Below are positions 1,913 to 48,611 of a DNA stretch of 64,000 nucleotides, piece after piece; the stretch's first letter is position 1, and each line of letters opens with the position of its first letter. Made by a program: the position numbers and the translations under genes. A model generated the notes under the pieces. That model worked only from the letters and a program-made list of their open reading frames with translations. It ran no database searches and was not told the DNA's origin. This DNA comes from a phage. The DNA is taken from the sequence record NC_101838.1; one strand, given 5' to 3'.

Positions 1913-3984
1913 TGGCAACAGCTGTTTTTAAACCTTACCGTGATTACTCTACAATGGCTGCACAGTTTCATTACCGCACAGTTCAGGATACTGCCGTTCC
2001 TGGTAGAGATTATGATCATGTTGAGGGCGATGTAACTATCCCAGTTGGGGCAACCAGTATTGAGATCCCAGTGGAAATTGTTGACAAATTACCCAACAGG
2101 TTGCCAAGAAGCTTCTTTATGGAGTTTTCATCAAAATCTCAAGGAGTGATGATTGGAACACAAAGGGCGAAATGTACAATAGTTTCAGATGAGAATCTTG
2201 ACAGGATATCTTGGGATACTGTTGAGGAGAGAATGTTTCACCCAAGATATTGGGTTACAACCACTCAGCAGACTGAAAGTACCTGTATTGTTGCAGATAA
2301 CAACTGTTGTATTAACCGTTTAGTGTCAAGAACATATGGAGGTATGGCTGGGTGCATTTGGGAAACAGTTGACAAGTATGACCATTTCGGTATTGGGTTT
2401 GATGATCACTATGAGATGAGAAACACCAAGCTTTGGTTCAGAATGTCAATAACCAACGCCAGCAACTTCTCCACTCCTGAAAAGATGATTATGACTGTAG
2501 ACCTTGTTGATGGCACAATCATCTATGTTCCTTTAGCTCAATATGCTGTCAGCATCTCAGAGGATAAAAATGTTGCAGAAATTCATATTGATTTTGAGGA
2601 CTGCGTCGGGATGGACCAGAACAACAACATGATGGGTGTTGATCCTCGGCAGGTGAGAAGGATTTTAATACCACTTATGCCTAAAGACTGGGTAAGTAAT
2701 AGCACAGATCCAAGAACGGAAAATGTAGAGTGTGAGTTGCGCCTAGATCTGCTTCAGCCAGACACAGGCTGGAAAATGATGCAACTTAATAATATCCAGG
2801 TGAGAGAGCACGACGTTGGGATCTGCACCGCATATGACGATATGTGGAACGTGTCCCCTTTAAGGGTGTTGAACAATATCAAGCGTCTGGGCTATACCGG
2901 AACCATAAACCATTATGTTGGTATGAGTCATTATTATGACTACACATGGTCAGGAACCCAATGGTCTATAAACAGAACAGGAGCGCTAAACGCTGCAGCT
3001 TATAAATGGCATGATGATTTTATGTACAATGCCAAACGACATAACTTCGACGTTATGCAATCTGTAAGTTTTGAGCTTTTCAGCGATGCCTGCCCGTTGG
3101 AATGGACCCAAAGAGACTGGAACGATAACTACGCTAAAACAGGGTATACACCTTGTAGCTACCTCCTGTCTCCAACCATTGAAGAGGGTATGAATTTCCT
3201 TACTGCAGTATTTAAGAATTTTGCATCAGCCGCTATGAGAAACAACCTGCCAGTGATTATGCAGGTTGGTGAACCGTGGTGGTGGTACAATACCGATACT
3301 CGTAGACCTTGTATTTATGATTACCCTACAAAACAGGCGTTTTATGATGAGACAGGCGAGTATGCATTAGATATTGGGACTATTGACGATCCTAAAACTG
3401 GCGGTGTTTACGATAAGTATGTAGCATTTTGTCGTGGTAAGCTTGGCGCTCGTATTGCTGCTATTTCAAAGGCAATAAAGGCACACGCTGCATCAGCTCA
3501 GATGACAGCTCTGCTGTTTTTCCCAACCATTATGGAAACCGAGCTTACGCAAAAGCTTAACCTTGCTGACCAATATAAAAAGGAAGCAGGTGCTCTTGAT
3601 TTCTTCTGCACCGAGTGCTACGATTGGGTGATGCAGGGAGGTATTGAAAAGGCAAAAGAGTCTGTAAACATACCTATCGTTAAGTTAGGTTGGCAACCGT
3701 CTGAAATACAATACCTTGCAGGGTTCGTTCCTAGTAAAGAGCTTGCTCCGGTATATGGTTACGACCCAACTAGGAATTACCAAGAATTTTTATGGAGATG
3801 TATTTGCGGAAACATGGCAACTATAGAGTATAGATACCCTGAGGTAAAACAGTATGTGTGGGCATACCCGCAAGTAATGTCTGACAGCATCACTGTTACC
3901 GCTAGAGATTCTACCGTGCTTCATATGGGGCAGGTTGCTCTGAAAGGGTATGTAGAAGATGTTGTCCCGCCAGACTTCTCATAA
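1912..3984 (+). CDS. hypothetical tail structural protein (690 aa)
   Basis: ORF track; AGGAGGG SD before ATG; lies between baseplate-like and tail fiber genes. Confidence 0.5.
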   Translation: MATAVFKPYRDYSTMAAQFHYRTVQDTAVPGRDYDHVEGDVTIPVGATSIEIPVEIVDKLPNRLPRSFFMEFSSKSQGVMIGTQRAKCTIVSDENLDRISWDTVEERMFHPRYWVTTTQQTESTCIVADNNCCINRLVSRTYGGMAGCIWETVDKYDHFGIGFDDHYEMRNTKLWFRMSITNASNFSTPEKMIMTVDLVDGTIIYVPLAQYAVSISEDKNVAEIHIDFEDCVGMDQNNNMMGVDPRQVRRILIPLMPKDWVSNSTDPRTENVECELRLDLLQPDTGWKMMQLNNIQVREHDVGICTAYDDMWNVSPLRVLNNIKRLGYTGTINHYVGMSHYYDYTWSGTQWSINRTGALNAAAYKWHDDFMYNAKRHNFDVMQSVSFELFSDACPLEWTQRDWNDNYAKTGYTPCSYLLSPTIEEGMNFLTAVFKNFASAAMRNNLPVIMQVGEPWWWYNTDTRRPCIYDYPTKQAFYDETGEYALDIGTIDDPKTGGVYDKYVAFCRGKLGARIAAISKAIKAHAASAQMTALLFFPTIMETELTQKLNLADQYKKEAGALDFFCTECYDWVMQGGIEKAKESVNIPIVKLGWQPSEIQYLAGFVPSKELAPVYGYDPTRNYQEFLWRCICGNMATIEYRYPEVKQYVWAYPQVMSDSITVTARDSTVLHMGQVALKGYVEDVVPPDFS

Positions 3985-29488: not shown

Positions 29489-30858
29489 TGGAAAAAGGGC
29501 AGTATGATGTAGGCACAGATGCTGCCCTCGTTGCAATCATGAGCGGTGAGAATGTCTTCGTTTCAGGACCCGCAGGTTGTGGGAAGACGTACCTCATCAA
29601 CATGATCCAGTCAATGTATGGAGACTCTTGCATAACGGTTGCCCCGACAGGGGTTGCCGCTTTAAACGTTAATGGAGCAACAGCACACCGAACCTTCGAT
29701 CTTGCAGCAGGTGTGAGCATGGAGTCAGACTGGACTGCAATAAGGGCAAAAACAGCAAAGCCTTTGAAAAGCAAGGCATTTACCATCCTAATTATCGATG
29801 AAATCTCTATGATCCGTGCTGATAAGTTTATAGAGATGGATAGGAAACTCCGCTTCCTTCGAAAAAATGACAAACCTTTCGGAGGCATACAGGTCATATT
29901 GTTTGGCGATTTTTACCAGGCACCTCCTGTTGTCTCTTCTATGGAGAAGGAGGCCTACTTCAACTTCTACCACACAGACCTATGTTGCTATACCGAATCT
30001 TGGAAAGAGCTGGACCTTCACAACATAGCCCTAATAGACCAGTTCCGACAGGAGTCTATTCGATTTGCCACAATGCTCAACTGTGTTCGTGAGGGTCGTC
30101 GCATAAAAGAGGTTGTAGCAGAACTTAATGCTCGCTGTTACAAAGGCGGTGTACCAACAGACGCTCTCACAATTTGCGCCACCAACAAACAAGCAGAGGA
30201 AGTGAACAGAAGGTTCTATGATGCCATCAACGCCCCAGAGAAGGTATACACTGGTGAAATGAAGGGTAAGTTTCCCTCCACCCTGCCAGTTGAGCAGGAG
30301 ATGAAGTTGAAAATTGGCATGAAAGTTATGATAACCGCCAACGATGTTGACCCGACGCACAAAGTACCTTATTATGTTAACGGAACACGTGCCACAATTG
30401 TTAAATTTAAGAACAAGGCGGTGGTGGTAGAGCTTGAAGATGGAACACAGGTTGACATAGAGCAGAGGTTGTGGGAAAATAACGAGTATAAGCCATCTCA
30501 GAGATACAACATTGCAGAAAGGAAGATGGAGAAGTTTATAGAGAGGGTAGTGATTGGGTCATACAGGCAACTTCCTCTGAAATCTGGGTATGCCGTAACA
30601 TCTCATAAAAGTCAAGGACTTACGCTAGATTGTTACAACCTGGACCTTGGAAAGAACGGAGCTTTCTCTCCTGGGATGACGTATGTTGCTTTGAGTCGGG
30701 TTAAGACAATACAAGGAATAAACTTGTTGCGTCCACTAAGAGAAGTTGACATTATTGTTGACCCGCGAGTCGTAGAGTTTTACAATACAACATTCCCTGA
30801 CTTAGACAAAATTGTCAGGAAAGATTTTGAAACCAGAGCTGAAGAGGGGGACGTATGA
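29488..30858 (+). CDS. Dda/Pif1-like SF1B DNA helicase
   Basis: Walker A GPAGCGKT, Walker B IIDEISM, motif GGIQVILFGDFYQ.PPV. Confidence 0.7.
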   Translation: MEKGQYDVGTDAALVAIMSGENVFVSGPAGCGKTYLINMIQSMYGDSCITVAPTGVAALNVNGATAHRTFDLAAGVSMESDWTAIRAKTAKPLKSKAFTILIIDEISMIRADKFIEMDRKLRFLRKNDKPFGGIQVILFGDFYQAPPVVSSMEKEAYFNFYHTDLCCYTESWKELDLHNIALIDQFRQESIRFATMLNCVREGRRIKEVVAELNARCYKGGVPTDALTICATNKQAEEVNRRFYDAINAPEKVYTGEMKGKFPSTLPVEQEMKLKIGMKVMITANDVDPTHKVPYYVNGTRATIVKFKNKAVVVELEDGTQVDIEQRLWENNEYKPSQRYNIAERKMEKFIERVVIGSYRQLPLKSGYAVTSHKSQGLTLDCYNLDLGKNGAFSPGMTYVALSRVKTIQGINLLRPLREVDIIVDPRVVEFYNTTFPDLDKIVRKDFETRAEEGDV

Positions 30859-31258: not shown

Positions 31259-32584
31259 ATGAGCAAAACCAAATTAGAACTAACCTGGATAGGTAAAAAC
31301 GAGCGCAAAAAGTTAGAGCCGCACATTTTGTTAGAAGATTCTAGCAAGTCTTACCACAGCCAGAAAGTGACCGAAAACGATATTTTTGATAATAAACTGA
31401 TTTTTGGAGATAACTTATTAGCATTGAAGGCGCTAGAGCAAGAGTATGCAGGCAAAGTGAAGTGTGTTTACATAGACCCACCATTCAATACTGGAAGGGC
31501 TTTTGAGCACTACGATGATAGCCTAGAGCATTCCATTTGGCTGGGCTTAATGAGGGATAGGTTAGAAATAATTCGTAATCTTCTAAGTGATGATGGGGTA
31601 ATATTCGTTCACTTAGATGATTGCGAAATGGCGTATTTAAAAGTTTTGATGGACGAGATTTTTGGTCGTGCAAATCAGTTAAATACCATATCGATGACCA
31701 CAAATTCCCCTTCGGGATTTAAGGCAACAGGAGCCACAGTTTTCTCCACAGCAAACTTTTTGCTCGTATATGCAAAAGATCGCACCCAGAAACCGCTTAA
31801 CAAAATCTATATACCTAAAGGGTATGATACAGGATATAACAAATACCTATTAAACCCGGATGACCATTATAAAAATTGGACGTGGTGCGGTATTGCCGAT
31901 GCGTTTGCAAAGGCCAATGGCTATAAAGATGCAAAAGAAGCCAAGAAAAAACTGCCTGACACATTCGATGATGAATTAGCACAATTCGCAATTGATAATG
32001 CAGAACGTGTATTTCAATCTGTTGCAATTGGTGGTGGTGCTAAAATAAAGAGAAAAGAAACTATCGAGAAGTCAAAGAAAGATAGGGATAAGGTCTATGT
32101 ACATCCAAATGAGGATATTGAAGGATTTTATATCGCAAATGGTAGGCAAATGGTCTTTTACTCCAATAGGCTTTTGGAAATTGACGGGAAAATGCAACCT
32201 GCGGAACTAATAACTGATGTTTGGACAGACATTAGTTGGAATGGAATAGCAAATGAAGGCGGCGTTAGTTTCAAAAATGGGAAAAAACCAGAAGCGCTTT
32301 TGAAGCGGATTTTCGAAATGTGTACGCGAGAAGGTGATTTGGTATTGGATTCATTTGGTGGTTCGGGAACTACTGCTGCTGTAGCTCACAAGATGAAAAG
32401 ACGTTGGATCTCAATCGAGCTAGGTGATCATTGTCATACCCATATTATTCCGCGCTTGGAAAAAGTGATCGATGGTGAAGATCAAGGTGGTATTTCTAAG
32501 TCTGTAAACTGGCAAGGTGGTGGTGGTTTCCGTTATTACAAACTTACCCCGACCTTAATTGCGAAAGATAAGTCTGATCAATAA
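31259..32584 (+). CDS. DNA methyltransferase, N6-adenine/N4-cytosine class (Mod-like, orphan)
   Basis: Catalytic motif IDPPFN and SAM motif DSFGGSGTT; no adjacent restriction subunit. Confidence 0.7.
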   Translation: MSKTKLELTWIGKNERKKLEPHILLEDSSKSYHSQKVTENDIFDNKLIFGDNLLALKALEQEYAGKVKCVYIDPPFNTGRAFEHYDDSLEHSIWLGLMRDRLEIIRNLLSDDGVIFVHLDDCEMAYLKVLMDEIFGRANQLNTISMTTNSPSGFKATGATVFSTANFLLVYAKDRTQKPLNKIYIPKGYDTGYNKYLLNPDDHYKNWTWCGIADAFAKANGYKDAKEAKKKLPDTFDDELAQFAIDNAERVFQSVAIGGGAKIKRKETIEKSKKDRDKVYVHPNEDIEGFYIANGRQMVFYSNRLLEIDGKMQPAELITDVWTDISWNGIANEGGVSFKNGKKPEALLKRIFEMCTREGDLVLDSFGGSGTTAAVAHKMKRRWISIELGDHCHTHIIPRLEKVIDGEDQGGISKSVNWQGGGGFRYYKLTPTLIAKDKSDQ

Positions 32585-33844: not shown

Positions 33845-34609
33845 TTGAAATTTATCTACAAAGAACACTACCACAAAGGTGTTGTGTGGAGTCTATTTGA
33901 CGGGTCTGGTGGTGCAGTCATTGACTGGGCAAAAGCTGGGTACCTGTGCCTGTGCTTTAATGCAGAAGGTGCTGATCACGGCAGTTATGCAGAGGTTATA
34001 ACCGATCATCCCAACATTCACTATGTGGATTATTGGATTGACCCATGGTTCCCTCAGGAAACTTTTTGCATGTACCCAGCTCCAGACTTTATTCTTGCAT
34101 TTCCTCCGTGCACGCATTTAGCGGTATCAGGTGCTGCACATTTTAAGAAAAAGCTGGCTAAGGACCCCATGATCCAAATTAATGCTGTAAAGGATGCTCG
34201 GGTTGCGGAAGAGCTGGGAGAGATTTACGATTGCCCGTGGCATGTAGAGAATCCTGTGGGTGTTATGTCCACACTGTGGCGTAAACCTGATTACCGTTTT
34301 CATCCTTCTGACTATGGTGGGTATTTACCGGAGGATGATGTAAACCCTTGGTTTCCTGAATTTATAGCTCCACGTGATGCCTATCCAAAAATAACTTGCG
34401 GCTGGATAGGTAATGGATTTATAATCCCGCCCACAAAACCTGTCCCGCAAATAGTTGACGCGGTTAGCGGGTATTCCATGCAACACGCCAAGCTGGGTGG
34501 GAAGAGTGCAAGAACGAAGATGATCCGAAGCCTCACACCACGTGGCTGGGCAAAAGCTGTATTCTTAGCAAACGAGCCTGTAGTAAGGAGCAGAATTAAT
34601 GGGAAGTAA
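33845..34609 (+). CDS. DNA (cytosine-5)-methyltransferase-like protein
   Basis: Motif I LFDGSGG, motif IV FPPCTHLAVSGA (PCQ-like with catalytic Cys), motif VI VENPVG; probable TTG start 7 nt after AGGAG (ORF-track start 33815 lies in the terminator stem). Confidence 0.5.
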   Translation: MKFIYKEHYHKGVVWSLFDGSGGAVIDWAKAGYLCLCFNAEGADHGSYAEVITDHPNIHYVDYWIDPWFPQETFCMYPAPDFILAFPPCTHLAVSGAAHFKKKLAKDPMIQINAVKDARVAEELGEIYDCPWHVENPVGVMSTLWRKPDYRFHPSDYGGYLPEDDVNPWFPEFIAPRDAYPKITCGWIGNGFIIPPTKPVPQIVDAVSGYSMQHAKLGGKSARTKMIRSLTPRGWAKAVFLANEPVVRSRINGK

Positions 34610-36677
34610 ATTTATGGCATCTGCATACAACCGTTTCGGTGAGCCAAACCCGAAAGCAACTAAGTATAAAAGCGGGGGAAGTGTGAAACGAGACTATCGT
34701 GATGAAAAAGAAGTTGAAACTGTAGAGACTGTTTTAGAAAATACTAAAATTGTCCCTGTCCCACAACAAAATATCGGTCTGATGGCTGCACAATATTTTG
34801 GTGTGCGATCAGCATTGTCCCAAGAAGACGGTGTGACAGTCACTGCAACATATTTCCCATATTACGACCGCTACGGAAATCTGTCCGGTTTCAAAAAGCG
34901 CGACTGGACGATTCCTAAAGAGCAAAGGGGCCATTTCTCCGTTGTTGGCATAGTAAAGGCTAACTCTCAGATGTTTGGTCAAAAGCTGTGTGCATCTTCC
35001 AACAACCGTAAGCAGATTAACGTTTGTGAGGGAGAAGGTGATGTTATTGCAGCATGGCAGGCTGCATATCAGATACAAGTAAAAGGGATTCTCACCAACG
35101 CTAAAGCCCCGGCAAAGGTGAAGCAGTGGGCTAAAGAGGTCCAGGACGGGATCGACGCAGTTATCAACGGTGGTGATCTGGCAGGAAAACCCTGCCTGCC
35201 TTTTGTTGGAATTAACTGTGGATGTGCAAACGCAGTAGATACTTTTGCAAACAATGAGAAGTTTATCCGCAGCTATGGAACAGTTGTGCTGGCAATGGAT
35301 AACGATGCAGCTAACGAGGTAGAGAAGCAAAAACACGTCATTAAAGGTGTTGAGGCCACGCACAATATCGCAGCATTTTTGATGGCTGATAACGTTTACC
35401 ACGTAGAATACCCTGGTGAAGTAAATGACCCTGACGGGGTAAAAGATATCCGTGACATGCTGAAGGCTAAAAAGCTGGAAGATATTGTCAACATGTTCCG
35501 GCACCCTGTTAAATATGTGCCTGATGCTGTGTCGGATTTAGAAGACTTCTCTATCGAGTCTTTGCGGAAAAAGACTTCCAACGGGGTAGATATCAGCGCA
35601 GAGTTCCCAAAACTGCAAAAAATGCTAAAAGGCTTGCACAAAGGGACACTCGTAATGCTTACAGGGCCATCAGGGGGCGGTAAAACAACTGTAGCTAAAA
35701 AACTGGAACATTGTATTGCAAGATACCTAATGGACCCGACATGCCCGAAGGCTGATGACTATGAAGAGGATGATCGTCTATGTATGATCCATCTTGAGGA
35801 GGACCCAGAGGAAGCAATTAACTCCTTGTATGCAAACCAGTTAGGGTTTGATGTTAAAGAGTTTGTTGAAGATCCTAGCCAGTTTTTAACTGATCAAGAA
35901 CACGCAGAGATTCACCAATCATGGGCAAAAGCTGGAAAAATCAAAGTGTTCAAACATTTCGGATCTATTCCGGTGGACGAGTTGATTACCAAGCTTAAGC
36001 AAATGGTTTGCCTGTACCATTGCCGTTATATTGTGCTGGATCACCTGTCCATGGTAATTTCAGGGCTTAATGTTAAGGATGAGCGAAAAGAACTGGACAT
36101 GGCTATGACTCAGCTGGCTGCGTTTTGTAAGCAGTTTAACGTGTTTATCTTGGTGATCGCTCACCTCAAACGTACAGAGATTGTGCCTCCTAAGGACAAG
36201 GATGGTAACCCGTTACCTTTCTGGTATCCTGTGCGAAAAGAGAATTTGCGAGGATCGGCGGGGCTTGAACAGTTGAGTTGGGTAGTCATAGGTGTCGAGG
36301 CCGAAGAAATGGTGGATCGTTCTCGTGGACGTGTCCGTCTGGTAGGTCTTAAAAACCGTCCAGCAAAAACTCTAGGTATTGCTGACACTTTGGTTATGGA
36401 CCCGCACACAGGTAAGTTCCATGATGCCAGTAATTGGTACTGGGACAAAGAAATGCAAATGTTTACAGACGGAGAAGGTGGGGAGGTTGTTTGGAGACCT
36501 CAGGCTATGTTTGAGGATCAGGAGCATGCAGTTGTAGAAACACCTATGGGCAAGGTTGTGGCTGATAAGGTTGTAACTCCTACTGTTAAGCCTGTTGACA
36601 CGCAGGAAGACCTCCAGTACGATGATCCATCCTCTGACCCGGTCCCTGGTTTTGAGGATGATGAAACGCCTTTTTAA
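34599..36677 (+). CDS. DNA primase-helicase (TOPRIM + DnaB/gp4-like helicase)
   Basis: TOPRIM VCEGEGD; Walker A GPSGGGKTT, Walker B YIVLDHL; AAGGAG SD. Confidence 0.75.
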   Translation: MGSKFMASAYNRFGEPNPKATKYKSGGSVKRDYRDEKEVETVETVLENTKIVPVPQQNIGLMAAQYFGVRSALSQEDGVTVTATYFPYYDRYGNLSGFKKRDWTIPKEQRGHFSVVGIVKANSQMFGQKLCASSNNRKQINVCEGEGDVIAAWQAAYQIQVKGILTNAKAPAKVKQWAKEVQDGIDAVINGGDLAGKPCLPFVGINCGCANAVDTFANNEKFIRSYGTVVLAMDNDAANEVEKQKHVIKGVEATHNIAAFLMADNVYHVEYPGEVNDPDGVKDIRDMLKAKKLEDIVNMFRHPVKYVPDAVSDLEDFSIESLRKKTSNGVDISAEFPKLQKMLKGLHKGTLVMLTGPSGGGKTTVAKKLEHCIARYLMDPTCPKADDYEEDDRLCMIHLEEDPEEAINSLYANQLGFDVKEFVEDPSQFLTDQEHAEIHQSWAKAGKIKVFKHFGSIPVDELITKLKQMVCLYHCRYIVLDHLSMVISGLNVKDERKELDMAMTQLAAFCKQFNVFILVIAHLKRTEIVPPKDKDGNPLPFWYPVRKENLRGSAGLEQLSWVVIGVEAEEMVDRSRGRVRLVGLKNRPAKTLGIADTLVMDPHTGKFHDASNWYWDKEMQMFTDGEGGEVVWRPQAMFEDQEHAVVETPMGKVVADKVVTPTVKPVDTQEDLQYDDPSSDPVPGFEDDETPF

Positions 36678-36735: not shown

Positions 36736-39513
36736 ATGAGTATGTGGTCTTTCGATTTTGAGTCATCCGGTTTGCTGGAAGACCCAGATCTTTATTATCA
36801 CTGCGGTCTGTTTAAAGAGCTGAATAAGAACCGTTTTATGCTGTTCCTTCCTCTAAATGACCGCACACACTACTCCGAGGAGGATATAGAAAAGGCTAAG
36901 AACTTCATTCTGGCAAAGAAAACTCTTTATAAAGATTTTGAAGTTCGCATAGCAGATTTTTCGGAGTTGGAAGGTTGGCTTACAGGCAATTCTGACTGGT
37001 CACCAACAGCTTTGAACTGCCATAACTGCTACAGTTATGACTTTATGCTAATGGAAAGATTATCCGGTATTCATTTTGATATGTTCCGTGATCCTAAATG
37101 CATGGGGACTATCAACGACCACCAGGTTAACCTGTTTGATACGTTGGCGATGAGCAGAATCTTGTGGCCTGATCGCCCTTTACCAAAAGGTTGTCCGGAC
37201 TCTGTATTCAACCCGGTTACTAAGAAAATGCAGCCTGTTGGTCCTCACGGCCTTATGGCATGGGGCTACGCCCTTGGTAACCAGAAAGTTCAAATTGATG
37301 ACTGGCGAGATCTTCCGTTGTGGAAGTATGTGGATCGTGTATTCGAGGACGTTATCATCCAGGAGCTGCTCTGGAAAGAGCTGGTAGCGGAATCAAAAGG
37401 TGTATTCTACGGCAAATCTGACATGCAGAACTTTATGTACGATCCAGCCAAAGAGAAGCCGAAAGGGTTCAAGAAAATCACCTGGAAGAACGCATTACGC
37501 CGAGGCATGCTGCAGCACTTCCTGATGGAGCTGCAGGCCCGTCAGGGTGTGTATTTCGACATAGATGGGGCTATTGCTTTACGTGACCGTTGCGATGCGT
37601 GGATGAAAGAGATCGCTGATCGTGTTGAACCTCAACTTCCTTTAAAAGAGTTGTCAATGTCTCAGCGGCCCAAGTTCCCTGAAAAGCCGTTTAACCAAGA
37701 TGGGACAATCTCCAATAATGGTTGGAAATGGTTAAAAGATAAGCTTGGCTATCCTGTAGACATGAGCGCTTTAGAATTCAAAGCCCCGCCTAAGCGAGCA
37801 TTTACCTCCACAGGAGATGTCAGCAAGATGGGGATAAAATGGTGCGAAGAGATGGGCTGCAAAGACCCCGACAAGATGGCTGATTTCTTGAGAGGTTATA
37901 TTAAGGGCACCTCCACACCACAACCTTTACCTAAAGAGCTGATGGATCAGGCAATAAGTGATCTGCAGCAGAAGCGAATGCCTGACTGCAAGATACCTAT
38001 GAAAATCAGCAATCAGGACGACATTAAGCGATACCTGATCAGTGCTGGTTGGCTTCCGACAATGTGGAGAACTAAGGATGTAACTAAGGACAGCAAGAAG
38101 AAAGCTCTACCTGATGCAGATGTTGATGCACGAGTATATGCATACATGGACGAGCTTTTAGAGTCAGAGTATTGTGACCTAATTATCAACTTCTGGAACA
38201 AAACTGATGCTAAGTTTCAGACAACAGTGCACAAGTTCCGAAGCTTTCCTAACTCCGAAAGGATTAAAAAGGAAGTGTTCGGGAAAATACGCAGAAAAGC
38301 CAGGGCACTTATTACTTCTCCGCAACTGAAAGATACGTTTGGACACCTATGTCCGAATCTTGAAAAATTGAACGGAGAGATGGCTAAAGATATCGTCTTG
38401 TGGTTATCATTGCGAAACCGCAGATCGGTCCTTGATCCAATCAAGGAGGATAAGGTTGATACTGGTCTTCTTAATCACCCACGTTTGAAGATTGACCATA
38501 AGCTTCCTGCTAAAAGCTCTGGATTAACAAACACTTCCCGACAGAAACACAGTATTTGTGCAAACATGCCTAAACCATCTCCTAAAGTGGTTATGGGTAA
38601 AGAGATGCGTAGCTTGTGGGGTGTTCCTCCTGGATATTTTGAGATCGGTATTGACGGGTCCAACTTAGAGCAGCTTATCGGGGCTTGGGGTGCCTTTGAG
38701 TTCGACAACGGCTTGTACTATGATGTTGTAAGTAACGGAGACGCACACCAAAACAATGCTGAGGCATATACAAAAGTAGCAGGCAGAGAGGTGTCTCGTA
38801 ACGACGGTAAACCTATCACGTATGGGGTTATGTACGGGGCACAAAAAGATAAAGTTGCAGATATGCTGGATATCTCCCCAGAGTTGGGGCAAAGGGTGAT
38901 CGATGCACTTTGGGATGCCAACCCCGGTCTTAAGGGGCGCAAAGAGGATCTGGAGAAATTCTGGGAAGCAACAGGTAAGAAGTTTATCTACTCTTTTGAT
39001 GGTCATGCTATCTGGACCCGATCTAAACACTCTTTACTTAATGCATACCAACAAAATGGTGGTGCATCGCTGTGTGACTTAGTTGGGATACTCATGCACC
39101 ACCAAATGGTGAAGCGTGGGTGGTACGATGAAGGTGTCCGTCGTATTATCTATTACCATGACGAATATCAGCTTCAAGTGCCTGACACACCGAAGTATAA
39201 GACTGTGTACACCTTCGACACAATTGAAGAACTGGAAGCATTTAAGGCAGAGCAGGAAGCCAAACTTCATGTGTTCGACGGTCATAAGTACAAAAAGGCA
39301 CGCAAGGATGAGGACGGAAACGAAGTGGTTGACAGAGACGGAAACACGGTGTACGATCCTATCCTGAACGATGACGGAAAGCTTGAACTTATCTGGAGCC
39401 CTGTGGGTGAAATGGTGGTGCATTGCTTCTGGCAAGCTTCTAAAATGATGGGAGTCCCGTTCCAGATCACAGGTGAATACTTGTGTGGTCGTAACTGGGG
39501 TGATTGTCACTAA
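36736..39513 (+). CDS. family A DNA polymerase with 3'-5' exonuclease
   Basis: Exo I FDFESSGL; Pol A motif A GIDGSNLEQL, motif B RNDGKPITYGVMYG, motif C YYHDE. Confidence 0.8.
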   Translation: MSMWSFDFESSGLLEDPDLYYHCGLFKELNKNRFMLFLPLNDRTHYSEEDIEKAKNFILAKKTLYKDFEVRIADFSELEGWLTGNSDWSPTALNCHNCYSYDFMLMERLSGIHFDMFRDPKCMGTINDHQVNLFDTLAMSRILWPDRPLPKGCPDSVFNPVTKKMQPVGPHGLMAWGYALGNQKVQIDDWRDLPLWKYVDRVFEDVIIQELLWKELVAESKGVFYGKSDMQNFMYDPAKEKPKGFKKITWKNALRRGMLQHFLMELQARQGVYFDIDGAIALRDRCDAWMKEIADRVEPQLPLKELSMSQRPKFPEKPFNQDGTISNNGWKWLKDKLGYPVDMSALEFKAPPKRAFTSTGDVSKMGIKWCEEMGCKDPDKMADFLRGYIKGTSTPQPLPKELMDQAISDLQQKRMPDCKIPMKISNQDDIKRYLISAGWLPTMWRTKDVTKDSKKKALPDADVDARVYAYMDELLESEYCDLIINFWNKTDAKFQTTVHKFRSFPNSERIKKEVFGKIRRKARALITSPQLKDTFGHLCPNLEKLNGEMAKDIVLWLSLRNRRSVLDPIKEDKVDTGLLNHPRLKIDHKLPAKSSGLTNTSRQKHSICANMPKPSPKVVMGKEMRSLWGVPPGYFEIGIDGSNLEQLIGAWGAFEFDNGLYYDVVSNGDAHQNNAEAYTKVAGREVSRNDGKPITYGVMYGAQKDKVADMLDISPELGQRVIDALWDANPGLKGRKEDLEKFWEATGKKFIYSFDGHAIWTRSKHSLLNAYQQNGGASLCDLVGILMHHQMVKRGWYDEGVRRIIYYHDEYQLQVPDTPKYKTVYTFDTIEELEAFKAEQEAKLHVFDGHKYKKARKDEDGNEVVDRDGNTVYDPILNDDGKLELIWSPVGEMVVHCFWQASKMMGVPFQITGEYLCGRNWGDCH

Positions 39514-41997: not shown

Positions 41998-42243
41998 ATG
42001 ACTGAAGTAGTTGCTCGCGCAGGACAGAAAGTACGTTGTGTTGAAGTAGGTTTTGGTGGCAAAGGGTGTCAAAACTTGACTCAAGGTAAGGAATACGCTG
42101 TTATTTCTGGTGGTGGCGACGAAAGTATTGTGTTCGAGGGCCACATCCTGGATGCTGAAAACTTTGAAATCTTTGACGACGATGGGGATCCAATCACCTG
42201 CCTGCTGGACGGGAATTGGGGAACTTTCGAAGTGATTGGCTAA
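41998..42243 (+). CDS. small paralog-family protein F
   Basis: AGGAGAC SD; Gly-rich beta-like motifs similar to A-E. Confidence 0.5.
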   Translation: MTEVVARAGQKVRCVEVGFGGKGCQNLTQGKEYAVISGGGDESIVFEGHILDAENFEIFDDDGDPITCLLDGNWGTFEVIG

Positions 42244-42326
42244 CAAATACCTATTGTAATTTGCAGAAGGGGATGCTAAAATAGTGTCTCCTTCTATGTT
42301 GTTCAAATAAAATCGGAGATTCCATA

Positions 42327-42692
42327 ATGGAACAAATGAACGATCAAGCGTCGGTTGCGATGAACGAGCAAGAACAACCTCAAGAATTTTTCTTAGGGTT
42401 AAGTAAAGATCAAGTGTCTCTTCTACTAGTGCTTTCTTCTTTCATGGGAAGACTTCAGGAGCTCACACAACAACCAGAGGCTGAACAATTATTTCAAGCT
42501 CTGCGTGAAGAAGAAAAATATCGTCGTTTGGACTATGCCTTAGGTTGGGTAGCTCAACAACGAGATATGCTGATGGCCCTCTCTGGGACCACAAGTTTTG
42601 CAATGGGGCTGTTGGCTCAAGTTCAGGACAAATTAATTCAAGCAGGGTTTGCACACACGGCAAACACTAACGAAGAACAAGGAGACAAATAA
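42327..42692 (+). CDS. hypothetical protein (121 aa)
   Basis: ORF track. Confidence 0.5.
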   Translation: MEQMNDQASVAMNEQEQPQEFFLGLSKDQVSLLLVLSSFMGRLQELTQQPEAEQLFQALREEEKYRRLDYALGWVAQQRDMLMALSGTTSFAMGLLAQVQDKLIQAGFAHTANTNEEQGDK

Positions 42693-43918
42693 TGAGCGTT
42701 ATTCAACAATTCGCTAACCCGATGAATCCGCGTGAAACTGTTTTACTGGCTCACGGCATGATTAAACGTGTCAGCATCAAGCCTATCAAAGGTGCTGATC
42801 CTACAACAGGTATTAAAACCACTGTGTGGCAAGGTAAGAAAATTGAATCCAGCCACACCATCTCTTTACTGATTTCTGAACTGGATTCCTCTGATAACCT
42901 GCTTCAAGGTGGTGAAGAAGTTTGGATCAGCATGGGTGATAAGCTGCTTAAACCTGGTCATCAAGACTCTGTCTCTGTTAAAATTGATGACAAGTGGGAA
43001 ACCGTAACGCCGGGATGGATCGTAAATATCCCTTTGAAGGCAAACGAGCATAACGGTAAGACCTATTACAAAGGCTCACTGGCTAAGATGGTCAAGCTGG
43101 GTGCAGGAGAGGCTCCAGCAGCGACTCAGCAGCAAAAACAGCAACAAGGTGCACAATCACAAGGCCAGAAGCAGAAACCTCAGCAGAATGCCAATCAGGA
43201 CGTTTTACGCATCTATGGCGATGTGACTCAGATTGTTGGCAACGTGGTTACTGTTAATGACCACAAGATTGGCGAAGGTGCTATGGTTGTAACTGATGAG
43301 CAGCTTAAAGACCTGGTGGTAGGTGGTCGTGTTGCAGCCATTGTTGACAAAGACACCGGAAACATTATCAGTGGTTTCAAAGCCTATCCCCCTAAGGCAG
43401 AGAACGGCACTCAAGGCTCCGGTGGCAAGCGTAAATCCTCTTACGACCCTATCGGTGTGGAAACGGGGCATAGCATCAATGCGTTGCAGATCATCCTGGA
43501 TCGCGGGTTTAAGGTAGACGACCCACTGGGCGTGGCTAAAACACTGCACGTAGTCACCATTGAGCTTAAGAAAGAGTATGCTCAAGCCACCAACCGAACT
43601 GAAGATGAAGTAGGTGCCAGTGTCGGTAATGCGGTGTTGAACGCTTGTCGCCGTATTGACAAGAAAACGAAAGTTGATGATTTTGCAGCGGCAATTACTG
43701 CAGAAGCAAAAGATGTCTTGACTAATCTGGCTGAACCGTTGTACGATTGGATCAAGAACGGTGCTGGGTCAACTGACTATCAAGAACCCCAGGCTGCCAA
43801 ACAGGAAGCAGCTCCACAGCAAAACACTGTAGACGCTCCTCCTGTAAATGATGAGGAAGATGACCCAATGGATCAGAATCCAGCACAGTACACCTTTGAT
43901 GATGACATCCCTTTTTAA
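42692..43918 (+). CDS. single-stranded DNA-binding protein-like, with SSB-type acidic C-terminal tip
   Basis: C-terminus ...YTFDDDIPF matches the bacterial SSB tail DDDIPF; Gln/Pro-rich linker precedes it. Confidence 0.55.
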   Translation: MSVIQQFANPMNPRETVLLAHGMIKRVSIKPIKGADPTTGIKTTVWQGKKIESSHTISLLISELDSSDNLLQGGEEVWISMGDKLLKPGHQDSVSVKIDDKWETVTPGWIVNIPLKANEHNGKTYYKGSLAKMVKLGAGEAPAATQQQKQQQGAQSQGQKQKPQQNANQDVLRIYGDVTQIVGNVVTVNDHKIGEGAMVVTDEQLKDLVVGGRVAAIVDKDTGNIISGFKAYPPKAENGTQGSGGKRKSSYDPIGVETGHSINALQIILDRGFKVDDPLGVAKTLHVVTIELKKEYAQATNRTEDEVGASVGNAVLNACRRIDKKTKVDDFAAAITAEAKDVLTNLAEPLYDWIKNGAGSTDYQEPQAAKQEAAPQQNTVDAPPVNDEEDDPMDQNPAQYTFDDDIPF

Positions 43919-43933
43919 CATCTAGTTAACATA

Positions 43934-43961
43934 GCCCTGCCCGAAAGGGTGGGGCATTTTT
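43934..43961 (+). terminator. intrinsic terminator (copy 2 of repeated hairpin)
   Basis: GCCCTGCCC-GAAA-GGGTGGGGC followed by ATTTTTG; same hairpin as 33799. Confidence 0.55.
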
Positions 43962-43980
43962 GTATAAGGAGATCTGAAAA

Positions 43981-44397
43981 ATGACATTAGAAGATATCAT
44001 TGTTAAGCCTGAGAACTATGACCAATACAACCTGTCAACTCAATCTGTAGACCTTGGATGCGCCACGGTCAGTGCGTGGCTGGTTAACGGAAAAGAGCTG
44101 GATAAATGCTTAGAAGCTCACATGTCTATTAACAAGTTTCTGGATGAAAATACTCACTGGCTTGAGGGTGCAGGCGTATATGCTTCATGGTTGGATAGTA
44201 TGGGATTCGACTACCAATCTGAAGAGGGGTGGTGGAGCTATTTAGCTATCTGTCCAGAGACGCTACAATGCTTCATGAAATATTCTGAAGATTTGGAGTA
44301 CCGGGCGGTGGTTGATAGTGCTATTGCCCGTTATAGCCGTAAACCTTTTTCCCACGACATTAAAACTGTGGAAGAATTTGTTGAAGTTTTCTGTTGA
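43981..44397 (+). CDS. hypothetical protein (138 aa)
   Basis: AAGGAGA SD. Confidence 0.5.
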   Translation: MTLEDIIVKPENYDQYNLSTQSVDLGCATVSAWLVNGKELDKCLEAHMSINKFLDENTHWLEGAGVYASWLDSMGFDYQSEEGWWSYLAICPETLQCFMKYSEDLEYRAVVDSAIARYSRKPFSHDIKTVEEFVEVFC

Positions 44398-44493
44398 CAC
44401 AGATTGAAAGGTGTGCAATTATAACTTCATAGAACGGGAGGACGTGATGAACGAAGAAAACTGGGATGTATAACTAACAGGAGGCCACTGCCC

Positions 44494-44691
44494 ATGATTT
44501 ATCGAATCCGTGTAAGAGAAGATGCACCAGGCTGTTACTTTGACTGGCGTGGGTGGTGGTTTATCCACCCAATGGATGGACTCACAGATAGAATGCTGGA
44601 TGCTGCCCTTTACACAGATACCGACATAGAATATAATCTCTATCTGAAGGACGGTATAGATAACGGCCTGTTTGAAGCAATTCCTGTGTAA
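44494..44691 (+). CDS. hypothetical protein (65 aa)
   Basis: AGGAGG SD. Confidence 0.4.
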   Translation: MIYRIRVREDAPGCYFDWRGWWFIHPMDGLTDRMLDAALYTDTDIEYNLYLKDGIDNGLFEAIPV

Positions 44692-44759
44692 GAGACTGTG
44701 ATAGCTATGTTTTATGATCTTCCTGTAGCGCCACCACCTGTTGAACCAGGAGAACTAAG

Positions 44760-45185
44760 ATGATCTATGAAATGCCAAAACTGATTCGTGACGATGCCCA
44801 AAACGCTCACACCATTATTATGGGCAAACGCATGGATATTATTTGTCATAAAGATTTCTGGGAAGGAAGTTACTTCACAGAGTATTTTGGTAAACTGGAC
44901 AATGGTCTGCTGATCCAGTTCTACACCGATGCGGAAAACAACATTCCCTGGGAGTTCGAAACTGAAGATGTCCATAAACTTTTCACCTTCCTCGGTATTA
45001 AGGTTAAGGCCAAGTTTGAAGAAGGTGAGTGCGACGATTGTGGATTTTATGAGGTAACAGATTTCTACCTTCCTAGCGGTAAGAACCTTTACTATGAAAG
45101 CCACTTCGGTAACTCCAATATGCCACAGTGCTGGACTGAGTTTTTTGAAATTGCGGAAGAGGAGCTGGCTTACCGTGATTATTGA
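44760..45185 (+). CDS. hypothetical protein (141 aa)
   Basis: ORF track. Confidence 0.5.
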   Translation: MIYEMPKLIRDDAQNAHTIIMGKRMDIICHKDFWEGSYFTEYFGKLDNGLLIQFYTDAENNIPWEFETEDVHKLFTFLGIKVKAKFEEGECDDCGFYEVTDFYLPSGKNLYYESHFGNSNMPQCWTEFFEIAEEELAYRDY

Positions 45186-45633
45186 TACTGTAGAGGGAGA
45201 TTTAATCTCCCTTTTTAAGAGCGGTGCTGGTCACCTGATCCACGGTTGTAACTGCTTCCACACAATGGGCAAGGGTATAGCAAAACAGATTGCCCGTGAG
45301 TTTCCTCAAGCACTGTCAGCCGACAAAGAGACTAGATACGGTTGCCTAAGTAAACTGGGTGCGTTCTCCCGATGGGAGCACTTATCTCCGGTAGGTATTG
45401 TCTACGGAATCAATCTATATACCCAGTTCTACCCAGGACCTAATGCTGAGTATTTCTCAATCCTGAAAGGCTTTGAGCTAGTCAATGAAGTATTCAGCGG
45501 ATCGACTTTACCATTCTACATCCCTAAGATCGGGTGCGGCATAGGCGGTTTGAAGTGGGAACACGTAGAGGACGTTATTAACCTTGCCACTTTCGACATA
45601 GATATTGTCGTGGTGGAGTACAAAAAGTGTTGA
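45175..45633 (+). CDS. macro-domain protein (ADP-ribose binding/processing)
   Basis: Motifs GDLIS...HLIHGCNC...MGKGIA and IGCGIGGL typical of macro domains; GTG start 10 nt after GGAAGAGGAG, overlapping upstream stop. Confidence 0.6.
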   Translation: MIIDTVEGDLISLFKSGAGHLIHGCNCFHTMGKGIAKQIAREFPQALSADKETRYGCLSKLGAFSRWEHLSPVGIVYGINLYTQFYPGPNAEYFSILKGFELVNEVFSGSTLPFYIPKIGCGIGGLKWEHVEDVINLATFDIDIVVVEYKKC

Positions 45634-45884
45634 CGACCATCTTCTGAGGTGATATAGTTTCCACGACAACTAAGAGAGGAGAGCACTGTGGAGACTAAAA
45701 TCTTAATTCTTGCTGTGGTAGATACAACCGAAGGAGCTATATTCGAATCTGCAGGAGGGTATTTCTACCTACCATACGGAAAAAGAACTTCCGAGCCAGG
45801 TAAAGATTCAATCCTCAAAGTGTTCCCGTGTGCTTTCTGGCTGGAGATTTTGGTATAAGATTGCAGAGGATTTGGGAGAGAATT

Positions 45885-46079
45885 ATGAGAAACAAGAAAG
45901 AACTTTACTCCGGTGAGTGGATCAACGATCAACAGGTGGGAGAGGTAACCTGCTTCCGATGTTTTACCAGGTACAATCTTAAAACTGCACCAAAAAGTGT
46001 TCCAAAGACTGACGGTTACTACATAAAAGAACCTCATTGCCCAAAATGTAAATGCCGATTGTACTGGAGCAATCTGTAA
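45885..46079 (+). CDS. small zinc-ribbon-like protein (64 aa)
   Basis: ATG after GGGAGAG; CxxC ... CxxC pairs. Confidence 0.4.
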   Translation: MRNKKELYSGEWINDQQVGEVTCFRCFTRYNLKTAPKSVPKTDGYYIKEPHCPKCKCRLYWSNL

Positions 46080-46142
46080 GAGGTTGACATCTGAAAACTG
46101 CAGTGTATAATATACGCATAAACTAACAGAGGGTGATGTATT

Positions 46143-46334
46143 ATGGTAATTTTTAACCGGGATGGTATCATAGTTAGACAGCACCCGTTCCTTGAATACT
46201 ATCAAATTGAGCAATGGTGCTACGGGGATTGCAGTCACTCCTATGGGCAAAGTTGGGGATATCGTACAGTTTTTGAATCCACAGACCTTGACAAAGTAAA
46301 ACAGAAAGTTTTAGAACTTCTTAACAACAAGTGA
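46143..46334 (+). CDS. hypothetical protein (63 aa)
   Basis: ORF track. Confidence 0.4.
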   Translation: MVIFNRDGIIVRQHPFLEYYQIEQWCYGDCSHSYGQSWGYRTVFESTDLDKVKQKVLELLNNK

Positions 46335-46344
46335 GTATCGTGCC

Positions 46345-46677
46345 ATGGTAACATTGGAAAGACGTAAAGCTATTGCCGCCACACTGGCAGACATCTTTTG
46401 GGATTGTAATTTAAAATCTACCCGAAATTGTGGTGCATCTGTAGATGTATTATTCCCACGGCCTACTATTGTTGCAATGGGCAACCTGCTCGATGTGGTA
46501 TATGGAGCATGGGACAAGGAAGGTGGATTCTATATCTGGCAACCTGACTACGGGACTTGGAAAGAGGTTAGTGGTTCTTCGGACTTCACTCCTGCAGTGG
46601 CTAAAATGGATGGCTGGAAAATCTATGTCGGTAACGACATGGAACTGAAAGGCGAAATTGTTTACTGGTTACCTTAA
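46345..46677 (+). CDS. hypothetical protein (110 aa)
   Basis: ORF track. Confidence 0.45.
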   Translation: MVTLERRKAIAATLADIFWDCNLKSTRNCGASVDVLFPRPTIVAMGNLLDVVYGAWDKEGGFYIWQPDYGTWKEVSGSSDFTPAVAKMDGWKIYVGNDMELKGEIVYWLP

Positions 46678-46698
46678 GAAAGTCCAGGAGATAAAGTT

Positions 46699-46944
46699 AT
46701 GAACAAAGGGTGGACATTTGTAGACGGCGTTAAAAACATGCCTCTAGGAAAGTATATTGTAGCCATGGCAGATGAGAATGGCAAGGTTGATTTCGGAGTT
46801 TGCGAGGTTGTTCTTGCAGGATCTGGTGACTATGCTCACAAAACTGGGATAATTAACGGTCATTTCTACTTTGATTACAACCCTGTTGTGGCGTATATGG
46901 CTATGCCAGAGTTCGAGCTCCCAAAGGAAGGTGCAGATGTTTAA
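46699..46944 (+). CDS. small paralog-family protein G
   Basis: CAGGAGA SD; Gly-rich motif similar to 39.5-42.3 kb family. Confidence 0.45.
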   Translation: MNKGWTFVDGVKNMPLGKYIVAMADENGKVDFGVCEVVLAGSGDYAHKTGIINGHFYFDYNPVVAYMAMPEFELPKEGADV

Positions 46945-47134
46945 GCTTAAATCTGCATGGAACATCGCTGTGGGGGACGAGATCCGTATCCCAGGTGGAA
47001 AGACCATTATGAAAATATCTCGTATCGAGTACGAAGGTGATCGTGTATTTCATATCTTTGCAGAAGATGGTCGAGAAATTTATATACAGGCAGGCTCTCA
47101 CATCTATATTCGTAAGAAAGGGGAGGACAAATGA
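46937..47134 (+). CDS. hypothetical protein (65 aa)
   Basis: ATG after AAGGAAGG, overlapping upstream stop. Confidence 0.4.
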   Translation: MFKLKSAWNIAVGDEIRIPGGKTIMKISRIEYEGDRVFHIFAEDGREIYIQAGSHIYIRKKGEDK

Positions 47135-47460
47135 CAGAGATCATCATTTCAACTGCAGGGTATGTATTCCTGACAATCATTGCGCTGGCTATTCTGGTGG
47201 CGGTGTATGGATTTGTTATCCTTCCTATCCTTGAGACATTTAGTTTGTGTCGGTGTTGGAGAAAAGCTTACGGTCCACAACCATGGAAGGACTGGCCCCA
47301 CCTGGTGCGCTTAGCGTTCTCTTATGCTTACGATCACTCCAGTAGTGCATGCATAACCGGATACCACGCCCACAACTGGAGCTGGGAAGGGTTGAGGAAA
47401 TGGAATGTTACAAAGACCATACCTCTGCGCATGTACAAACCTAAAAACAAAGACAACTGA
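47131..47460 (+). CDS. small membrane protein (109 aa)
   Basis: ATGA overlap; N-terminal transmembrane segment. Confidence 0.45.
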   Translation: MTEIIISTAGYVFLTIIALAILVAVYGFVILPILETFSLCRCWRKAYGPQPWKDWPHLVRLAFSYAYDHSSSACITGYHAHNWSWEGLRKWNVTKTIPLRMYKPKNKDN

Positions 47461-47499
47461 TACTTGAAAATTCCTGGCATATCAAGTATAAGGGGGATT

Positions 47500-47960
47500 T
47501 CTAAAATGGATTTCCTCCTTTTGATATTTCACCGGGCTGGATATTTTAAAATTCTTAGAAAATCAGAAAATGGATCGAAAACTAAAATGGATTTTTCAGA
47601 GTAGGCGCGACAAGCTGAATAACTCATCCTATCGTTTGCACCATATTCCAGGCCACCATTATAGATTTCCCACACATGCTAACCTCCCTCTACTAGAACT
47701 TCCTCCACTTACCCTTGACCTTCTATGGTAACAATCTAACCGCTATCTTGAAGTTGCGGTGCAGCTTTCCAGGTACTCGATCTACTTTTCATTTCAGGGC
47801 TTGGATTTTCTGAAAATTTTTCTCGATAAATTTCTCAGTACTCGATCTGTTTTTCGTTTTCTGAATCGGATTTTCTGGAAATCGTTCCGGCTCTCAACCT
47901 GAAATTTTTGGGGACGAAATCGATTTTTCGTTTTCAGAAATGGATTTTTAAAATTTCTAT
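47500..47960. repeat. non-coding iteron-like region: at least 5 copies of TGGATTTT(T)C plus a 30-bp direct repeat
   Basis: AAATGGATTT(T)C-type motifs at about 47505, 47570, 47585, 47795, 47870, 47940; CAGGTACTCGATCT...TTTC repeated at 47770 and 47836; no ORF. Confidence 0.5.
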
Positions 47961-48063
47961 ATGGGAATATTTTAGTGGATACTATTTTATAGTAAATTGT
48001 TACGGAGGGTAATTAGCGTGCTAATTAAATTTATTAAATGCGAGGAGTTCTCATTTAGAATCT

Positions 48064-48290
48064 TGAATGATAATCATTCTCGTTTGCAGAATAACGGGCA
48101 GGCCCGGTGATTGTCTCCCGGCCCCTGTTGCCCCGGCTTGTTATTATAGTATCACACAGGACAAAGAAAGCAAGGATTTTTTGCATAAATTTTTAAATGA
48201 TAATGATAACCGTTCTCATTTTATGCAGCGCTCATCCCTGGTGGTTGTCTCCCCCGTCACCGGTGCCTGCCGTCCTTTCGATAGGTATAT
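48064..48290 (+). repeat. two tandem degenerate units, each ending in a GC-rich element containing TTGTCTCCC
   Basis: AATGATAAT...GCAG then CCCGGTGATTGTCTCCC (48103-48119) and GGTGGTTGTCTCCCCCGTCACCGGTGCCTGC (48241-48270). Confidence 0.45.
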
Positions 48291-48473
48291 TGTGCCACCT
48301 GTCGGGGCCGCTGTCAACACTTTTCAAAAAATTTTTCTAACCTGATGCGCTAACCGCTGCAACCTGGCGGGGCCAGCCTGGCAGGACCTAACTGACCAGG
48401 TGGGAGAGGGTGAAATCTTGCAAACCTGGTAGGCCCATGCTGTAGGGTAAACAATTGAAGAGGAGGTACAAAA

Positions 48474-48611
48474 ATGAAAGGTAATGCTACTCACCTGGGA
48501 AATGTAGTGATTAATGATACAGAAGCGCGGGAACATAAAGAAGAGTACGAAAAAATGGTGGTTAACCTGGCGGGGGGGCGGCAGGTGGATTCTATCATAA
48601 AAATAATTTAA
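48474..48611 (+). CDS. small hypothetical protein (45 aa), not in ORF track
   Basis: ATG 7 nt after GAGGAGG; open for 45 codons. Confidence 0.4.
   Translation: MKGNATHLGNVVINDTEAREHKEEYEKMVVNLAGGRQVDSIIKII

Follow-up and report, generated by a model that had tools for sequence, protein, structure and literature searches.

We analyzed a 64,000-nucleotide stretch of phage DNA (NC_101838.1; hereafter, the window) and found that a small gene on its plus strand (45175..45633) encodes a macrodomain protein of 152 amino acids, which is a candidate ADP-ribosyl hydrolase of the Tk.4/AdfM type. We propose that this protein is a stand-alone ADP-ribosyl glycohydrolase that would remove the ADP-ribose that DarT2 adds to thymidines in single-stranded phage DNA, and so would counter the DarTG2 defense. 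We put the probability of this reading at roughly 0.6. The source phage is a Vequintavirus, that is, an rV5-like myovirus of E. coli. The 3 kb around the gene are 99.9% identical to the Escherichia phages naswa, magaca, and nomo, and 115 phage records cover most of these 3 kb at 90% identity or more. Several GenBank/RefSeq records of near-identical phages already annotate the gene as "macro domain protein" or "phosphatase," and a counter-defense role for the family has been published. The protein is thus genuine, but it is an expected addition to a counter-defense family that was already known.

The sequence-only reading of this DNA had described a protein of 152 residues with the motifs HGCNC, MGKGIA, and IGCGIGG and a start codon that overlaps the upstream stop codon. 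This description was accurate in every motif and coordinate. H23-G-C-N-C27 is encoded by nucleotides 45241-45255, M31-G-K-G-I-A36 by 45265-45282, and I119-G-C-G-I-G-G125 by 45529-45549. The gene begins with GTG and ends with TGA (45631-45633), and it overlaps the upstream open reading frame (44760..45185, plus strand; 141 amino acids; PHROG 8157, function unknown; TGA at 45183-45185) by 11 nt. Because the upstream stop codon sits 11 nt inside the macrodomain gene, the two genes are probably translationally coupled. An AGGAG motif that lies 10 nt before the GTG (45160..45164, plus strand) resembles a Shine-Dalgarno sequence and would act as one.

The same reading frame offers an earlier ATG, at 45094, which would give a protein of 179 amino acids. 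We favor the GTG because it is the annotated start of the 459-nt gene in the Vequintavirus orthologs from APECc02, JeffSchatz, and isim (RefSeq/GenBank); because the homolog from Krischvirus GEC-3S has an ATG at the aligned codon; and because T4 Tk.4 and 60 or more other homologs share their first residue with the product that starts at the GTG. The 27 additional residues that the ATG would add are found in no homolog, and the orthologs that we checked are annotated from the GTG or align to it. Among Vequintavirus orthologs, dN/dS is 0.10-0.15, which shows that the protein is maintained under purifying selection.

The similarity to macrodomains is far beyond chance. The protein matches Pfam's Macro family (PF01661) at 28 bits, above the gathering cutoff of 22 (E = 2.2e-6), and it matches PHROG 335 (E = 1.9e-59). 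The DarG models of PADLOC and NCBIfam match with E values of about 1e-12 to 1e-13, and DarG is the top match both in the defense library and in NCBIfam. With a profile built from 21 homologs, macrodomains from the PDB were matched at E values of about 1e-15. An AlphaFold2 model (with 68 homologs as input) has a mean pLDDT of 96.7 and shows the three-layer alpha/beta/alpha macro fold; when this model was compared to known structures with Foldseek, TARG1, Poa1p, and DarG matched with TM scores of 0.74-0.78. The macrodomain assignment, which had originally been made from motifs, therefore stands, as both profile and fold searches match clearly. In both sequence and structure, the protein is nearer to TARG1, DarG, and SCO6735 than to the MacroD, viral, PARG, or macroH2A types, and it belongs to the TARG1/DarG/SCO6735 group of macrodomains. 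(The paper on SCO6735, PMC9411070, refers to these macrodomains as the ALC1-like class.)

Among phage proteins, the key relative is Tk.4 from phage T4. The two proteins are 39% identical (E = 2e-41; residues 1-150 versus 1-152), are similar in size (152 versus 155 amino acids), and can be aligned end to end. They share the motifs H-G-C-N-C-F-H-T-M-G, N-L-Y-T-Q-F, and I-G-x-G-I-G, a start codon that overlaps the stop codon of the gene upstream, membership in PHROG 335, and the label "phosphatase." They differ in that one is from the Vequintavirinae and the other from the Straboviridae, in that the upstream neighbor in the window is not Vs, and at position 33, which is lysine here and serine in T4. 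A closer relative is BN201_0092 from Krischvirus GEC-3S, which is 69.5% identical over its whole length. In GEC-3S, the gene (2501..2956 of the stretch that we compared) lies directly after vs and between regB and tk, the same slot that tk.4 has in T4. Given the full-length homology to Tk.4 and the high identity to BN201_0092, we assign the macrodomain protein to the Tk.4 family, and from its sequence it would best be filed as a Tk.4-type AdfM. Although GEC-3S has a T4-like genome, its protein is far closer to the Vequintavirus protein than T4 Tk.4 is. Such high identity across unrelated phage lineages suggests lateral transfer between Vequintavirus and T4-like phages. In a translated search, 2781 of 50,697 phage records had homologs, and most of these are from phages of enterobacteria, Pseudomonas, Vibrio, Acinetobacter, or Aeromonas.

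Relatives are also found outside of phages. A bacterial homolog that is 42% identical (on a contig from a metagenome-assembled genome, 5001..6696) is encoded just upstream of a 406-amino-acid Exo_endo_phos protein, amid housekeeping-type genes. We looked for a DarT partner in the neighborhood of this one locus and found none, so orphan cellular relatives with the glutamine site (described below) do exist outside of toxin-antitoxin loci.

The function of Tk.4 has recently been studied genetically. A transposon screen that challenged T4 with a DarTG2 host yielded tk.4 as its sole significant hit, and a clean deletion of tk.4 makes T4 sensitive to DarTG2 (bioRxiv 10.1101/2025.11.20.689424, preprint). 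The authors named the protein AdfM; their evidence for Tk.4 is genetic, and they proposed hydrolysis rather than showing it. (The same preprint used a library of Bas54, which belongs to the Vequintavirinae, on clinical isolates.) The name AdfM has also been given to gp104 from PhiKZ, a chimallivirus macrodomain protein that strips the ADP-ribose added by DarT2 from DNA in vitro, protects against DarTG2, and is imported into the phage nucleus (Cell Rep 2026, PMC13309987). Like the Vequintavirus protein, PhiKZ gp104 consists of a macrodomain by itself, and it falls broadly into the same class, but the two are only about 20% identical (E = 1e-4), and gp104 retains the DarG-type F-P-T-K with its catalytic lysine (K78) where the Vequintavirus protein has Y-T-Q. 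Given this low identity and the contrast between a lysine-type gp104 and a glutamine-type Tk.4, the two proteins named AdfM appear to belong to different branches.

We then compared the active site to those of characterized macrodomains. Across 68 homologs, G24, N26, G34, A36, N80, Q84, P117, and G120 are invariant. The Vequintavirus protein also has the MG-x-G-I-A loop. According to HMMER and MAFFT alignments, N26 (codon at 45250..45252, plus strand) corresponds to Asn22 of DarG and Asn27 of SCO6735. In DarG from T. aquaticus, catalysis uses N22 and K80, and N22 is needed for activity (PMC13309987); similarly, Asn27 of SCO6735 is needed, and changing it impairs activity (PMC9411070). In the IGCGIGG phosphate-binding loop (plus strand), G120 and G122 correspond to G126 and G128 of SCO6735, whose G128E variant has lowered activity (PMC9411070). 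N26, G120, and G122 are thus kept, but the lysine of DarG and TARG1 is replaced by the invariant Q84 (codon at 45424..45426, plus strand). By the same alignments, Q84 occupies the position of K80 in DarG and of K84 in TARG1, where K84 and D125 form the catalytic pair (PMC9411070). Q84 lies within N-L-Y-T-Q-F, which aligns to N-F-P-T-K-K in DarG, M-F-P-T-K-D in PhiKZ gp104, and Y-L-I-T-K-K in TARG1.

A glutamine at this position does not imply a dead enzyme. T4 Tk.4 has the equivalent glutamine, and so do SCO6735 from Streptomyces coelicolor (Gln85) and BT1257 from Bacteroides, within N-M-I-G-Q-H. In SCO6735, Gln85 is essential: both Q85A and Q85E are inactive (PMC9411070). Furthermore, SCO6735 cleaves thymidine-linked ADP-ribose off DNA faster than DarG or TARG1 do, and it rescues E. 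coli from DarT (PMC9411070). Since SCO6735 carries the glutamine and loses activity when it is mutated, the site in the Vequintavirus protein would be a variant active site and not a dead one. The portions of the two AdfM papers that we searched do not describe this difference between glutamine and lysine types, and the T4 preprint (bioRxiv 10.1101/2025.11.20.689424) mentions neither glutamine nor SCO6735.

Is the protein a member of one of the characterized subclasses? It is not DarG proper. It scores 46.7 bits against the DarG model (NCBIfam NF048014, PADLOC DarG), versus a cutoff of 250, and it covers only positions 3-141 of the model's 338. The catalytic K80 of DarG from T. aquaticus and M. 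tuberculosis is replaced by Q84, and the 152 residues comprise only the macrodomain, without DarG's C-terminal DarT-binding domain. There is also no adjacent darT, as the neighboring open reading frames have no match in Pfam. (The DarG structures that we compared were 5m3i from M. tuberculosis and 5m31 and 5m3e from T. aquaticus.) Nor does it have the Lys84/Asp125 pair of human TARG1 (OARD1), as the corresponding residues are Q84 and G124.

The subclass of SCO6735 and BT1257 (PDB 5e3b, 2fg1, and 2afc) is more similar at the active site, where Q84, N26, G120, and G122 each have a counterpart among the SCO6735 residues that mutagenesis showed to be required for cleaving thymidine-linked ADP-ribose (PMC9411070), but overall identity is just 24-26%. 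This subclass was defined by a loop that is five residues longer than the loop of DarG or TARG1, and Lys89 and Lys93 in this mobile loop of SCO6735 were proposed to help with DNA binding (PMC9411070). The insertion follows the glutamine in both SCO6735 and BT1257 and is missing, along with the two lysines, from the Vequintavirus protein and from T4 Tk.4. In addition, the position of Val25 in SCO6735 (Val or Ile) is the invariant G24 here, although only the backbone oxygen of position 25 is invoked in the model for SCO6735. Overall, our alignments place the protein in what appears to be a glutamine-type, short-loop branch of DarG's macrodomain class, distinct from DarG itself. Because it has neither the catalytic lysine nor the lysine-rich loop of SCO6735, activity on DNA cannot simply be transferred to it from DarG and TARG1 or from SCO6735.

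We propose the following mechanism. In a host with the DarTG2 toxin-antitoxin defense, DarT2 would attach ADP-ribose to thymidines of single-stranded phage DNA. The macrodomain enzyme, probably made early and from a host-type promoter together with the small protein encoded upstream, would strip off the ADP-ribose so that replication of phage DNA proceeds. Its chemistry would follow SCO6735 rather than the pattern of DarG and TARG1, with N26 and Q84 orienting the distal ribose as well as a water molecule and no catalytic lysine involved. That the protein reverses host immunity based on ADP-ribosylation had been suggested from its motifs, and this suggestion gains support from the full-length homology (39% identity) to T4 Tk.4/AdfM and from the phenotype of the tk.4 deletion; these are also among our grounds for predicting a role against DarTG2. 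In favor of this prediction we further counted the in vitro activity of PhiKZ gp104, the active-site residues shared with SCO6735, the top matches to DarG, the purifying selection, and the gene's location downstream of, and in the same direction as, the replication module, as well as a distant homolog that is encoded right behind a primase gene. Against it, we set the purely genetic, preprint-stage evidence for Tk.4, the 39% identity to Tk.4, the missing catalytic lysine and long SCO6735-type loop, the lack of a DarT-binding domain, and the possible dispensability of the gene (see below).

We considered several other functions. The protein might remove ADP-ribose from protein or RNA instead of DNA, and so counter another defense or toxin with ADP-ribosyltransferase activity, or it might trim modifications that arise during infection. 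SCO6735 and TARG1, which are in the same macrodomain class, also act on modified proteins (PMC9411070), and the phage family lacks the lysine-rich loop that was proposed to help SCO6735 bind DNA. But the only known phenotype in the family, that of T4 Tk.4, concerns DarTG2, which modifies DNA, and T4, despite its Tk.4, remains strongly restricted by the mRNA ADP-ribosyltransferase CmdTAC (PMC11618068). Also, no ADP-ribosyltransferase is encoded by the neighboring open reading frames that we scanned. We consider a protein or RNA substrate unlikely. It seems somewhat less probable still that the protein acts on a metabolite, either as an ADP-ribose-1''-phosphate phosphatase like yeast Poa1p or as an O-acetyl-ADP-ribose deacetylase, and has no direct role in immunity. 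Poa1p, whose substrate is a metabolite, is among the top matches by both sequence and fold; it shares I-H-x-C-N-C with the Vequintavirus protein, including the position of His23, which is mutated in PDB 6lfs; and both RefSeq and PHROG label the family "phosphatase." However, this label derives from the name of the family and not from an assay, and DarG, BT1257, and TARG1 are at least as close as Poa1p is. The specific DarTG2 phenotype of the T4 homolog also argues against a metabolite, and we see no reason for 2781 phage records to carry a housekeeping activity of this kind.

Alternatively, the protein could neutralize DarT mainly by binding to it, as a mimic of the antitoxin, rather than by hydrolysis. 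Catalytically dead macrodomains of SCO6735, DarG, and TARG1 still inhibit DarT in vitro (PMC9411070), and AdfB from phage ICP1 works by direct interaction (PMC11481870). We find this quite improbable, as active-site residues that are invariant in 68 diverse homologs point to catalysis, and the 152-residue protein has no counterpart to the C-terminal DarT-binding domain in the 338-position DarG model. Finally, the sequence-only reading had raised the idea that the protein might bind or degrade immune signals derived from ADP-ribose, such as those of Thoeris. The macrodomain of ThsA from type II Thoeris does bind His-ADPR, but our literature searches gave no support for a role in Thoeris or in degrading signals, and we set the idea aside as very improbable. 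The removal of ADP-ribose from DNA as a counter to DarTG2 remains our preferred reading.

The macrodomain gene is part of a long co-directional run of small open reading frames downstream of the replication module. This module includes genes for a Pif1-like helicase (29488-30858), a DNA methylase (31259-32584), a DnaB-like helicase (34599-36677), and a family A DNA polymerase, which is a single open reading frame of 925 amino acids (36736..39513, plus strand). In APECc02, the polymerase gene is annotated as fragments with a gene for an HNH endonuclease between them, and in phage Alma it is annotated as two polymerase open reading frames, so the polymerase gene appears to be variably interrupted among close relatives. 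For ten open reading frames that flank the macrodomain gene, every PHROG match is to a family of unknown function and Pfam gives no match; ten more downstream have no matches above our cutoffs. The open reading frames that we scanned, which cover part of the window, include no ADP-ribosyltransferase, no NADAR protein, and no DarT-like partner. We also asked if the upstream open reading frame (44760..45185) might be the counterpart of T4 Vs, but there is no similarity (E = 34).

The macrodomain gene and the gene that it overlaps may form an early unit that is transcribed by the host's RNA polymerase. This suggestion comes from a terminator-like hairpin (43934-43955), which would close the preceding unit, and from a candidate sigma-70-like promoter at 44609..44637 on the plus strand (TTTACA, 17 nt, TATAAT; 11 of 12 consensus positions), both of which are consensus matches only. 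Farther downstream, a perfect sigma-70 consensus (TTGACA, 16 nt, TATAAT; 46084..46111, plus strand) occurs just before a small open reading frame at 46143. Overall, 42000-48500 contains 20 promoter-like sites, about double the 11.5 that occur in shuffled sequence.

The gene before the hairpin (42692..43918, plus strand) encodes a protein of 408 amino acids that belongs to PHROG 4477 (unknown function) and has no match in Pfam or the PDB. It has a middle region that is rich in glutamine and proline, and it ends with YTFDDDIPF. E. coli SSB has the same tip, DDDIPF, on its C-terminal tail. The 408-amino-acid protein could be a phage SSB, or it could mimic the SSB tail and recruit, or compete for, the host proteins that interact with SSB.

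The macrodomain gene varies among close relatives. Between the window and JeffSchatz (Bas55), nucleotide identity is 96-100% in both flanks, yet it is only 73-86% over precisely the stretch that the gene occupies (45175..45624). Because the drop in identity is limited to the gene and lies between near-identical flanks, it indicates that the allele was replaced by a recombination event that appears confined to the macrodomain gene. The differences from JeffSchatz are mostly synonymous (dN/dS = 0.11). The window's type of allele and the type in Bas55 and Bas59 are 82-83% identical. The protein database also contains two clusters of alleles, at 98% identity (P0001) and at 83% identity (P0002). 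There are also shortened versions of 92-121 amino acids (P0017, P0019, P0037, and P0052) with identities of up to 88% across roughly half of the length. These are encoded on long contigs (about 135 kb for P0017 and P0052), so the gene may be dispensable, and some Vequintavirus genomes may carry it in a disrupted or split form. As an aside, this region is also matched, at nucleotide identities of 90% or more (96% for C12), by 16 records under the name "Campylobacter phage" (host Campylobacter jejuni), which looks like mislabeling or carry-over of an rV5-like coliphage.

A broader and more tentative idea, which we doubt more than we believe, is that Tk.4-type macrodomains, including this one, would form their own branch of the TARG1/DarG/SCO6735 class, with the active-site glutamine of SCO6735 and a loop as short as those of DarG and TARG1. 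Such enzymes would remove ADP-ribose from DNA with neither a catalytic lysine nor a lysine-rich clamp, and the exchange of alleles would reflect the matching of alleles to different DarT variants in hosts. If so, then the two proteins named AdfM (T4 Tk.4 and PhiKZ gp104) would have reached the same counter-defense by different chemistry, as the difference in catalytic residues between the T4/Vequintavirus proteins and the PhiKZ protein would predict. Also, Tk.4-type proteins might then have a broader range of substrates (DNA plus protein or RNA). The replacement of lysine by glutamine would allow two routes to the same counter-defense to be contrasted in simple tests.

Our analysis leaves the current understanding of these proteins unchanged and extends a function that was first reported in 2025-2026 to another group of phages. 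If the proposed function is correct, then rV5-like phages carry a ready-made enzyme against DarTG2, which would help to account for their host range among strains with this defense and to predict it. This would be of practical interest because rV5-like phages are broad-host-range E. coli phages that are used in work on therapy and biocontrol. And given the size of the family (2781 of 50,697 phage records), DNA ADP-ribosylation of the DarT type would be a major selective pressure on phages.
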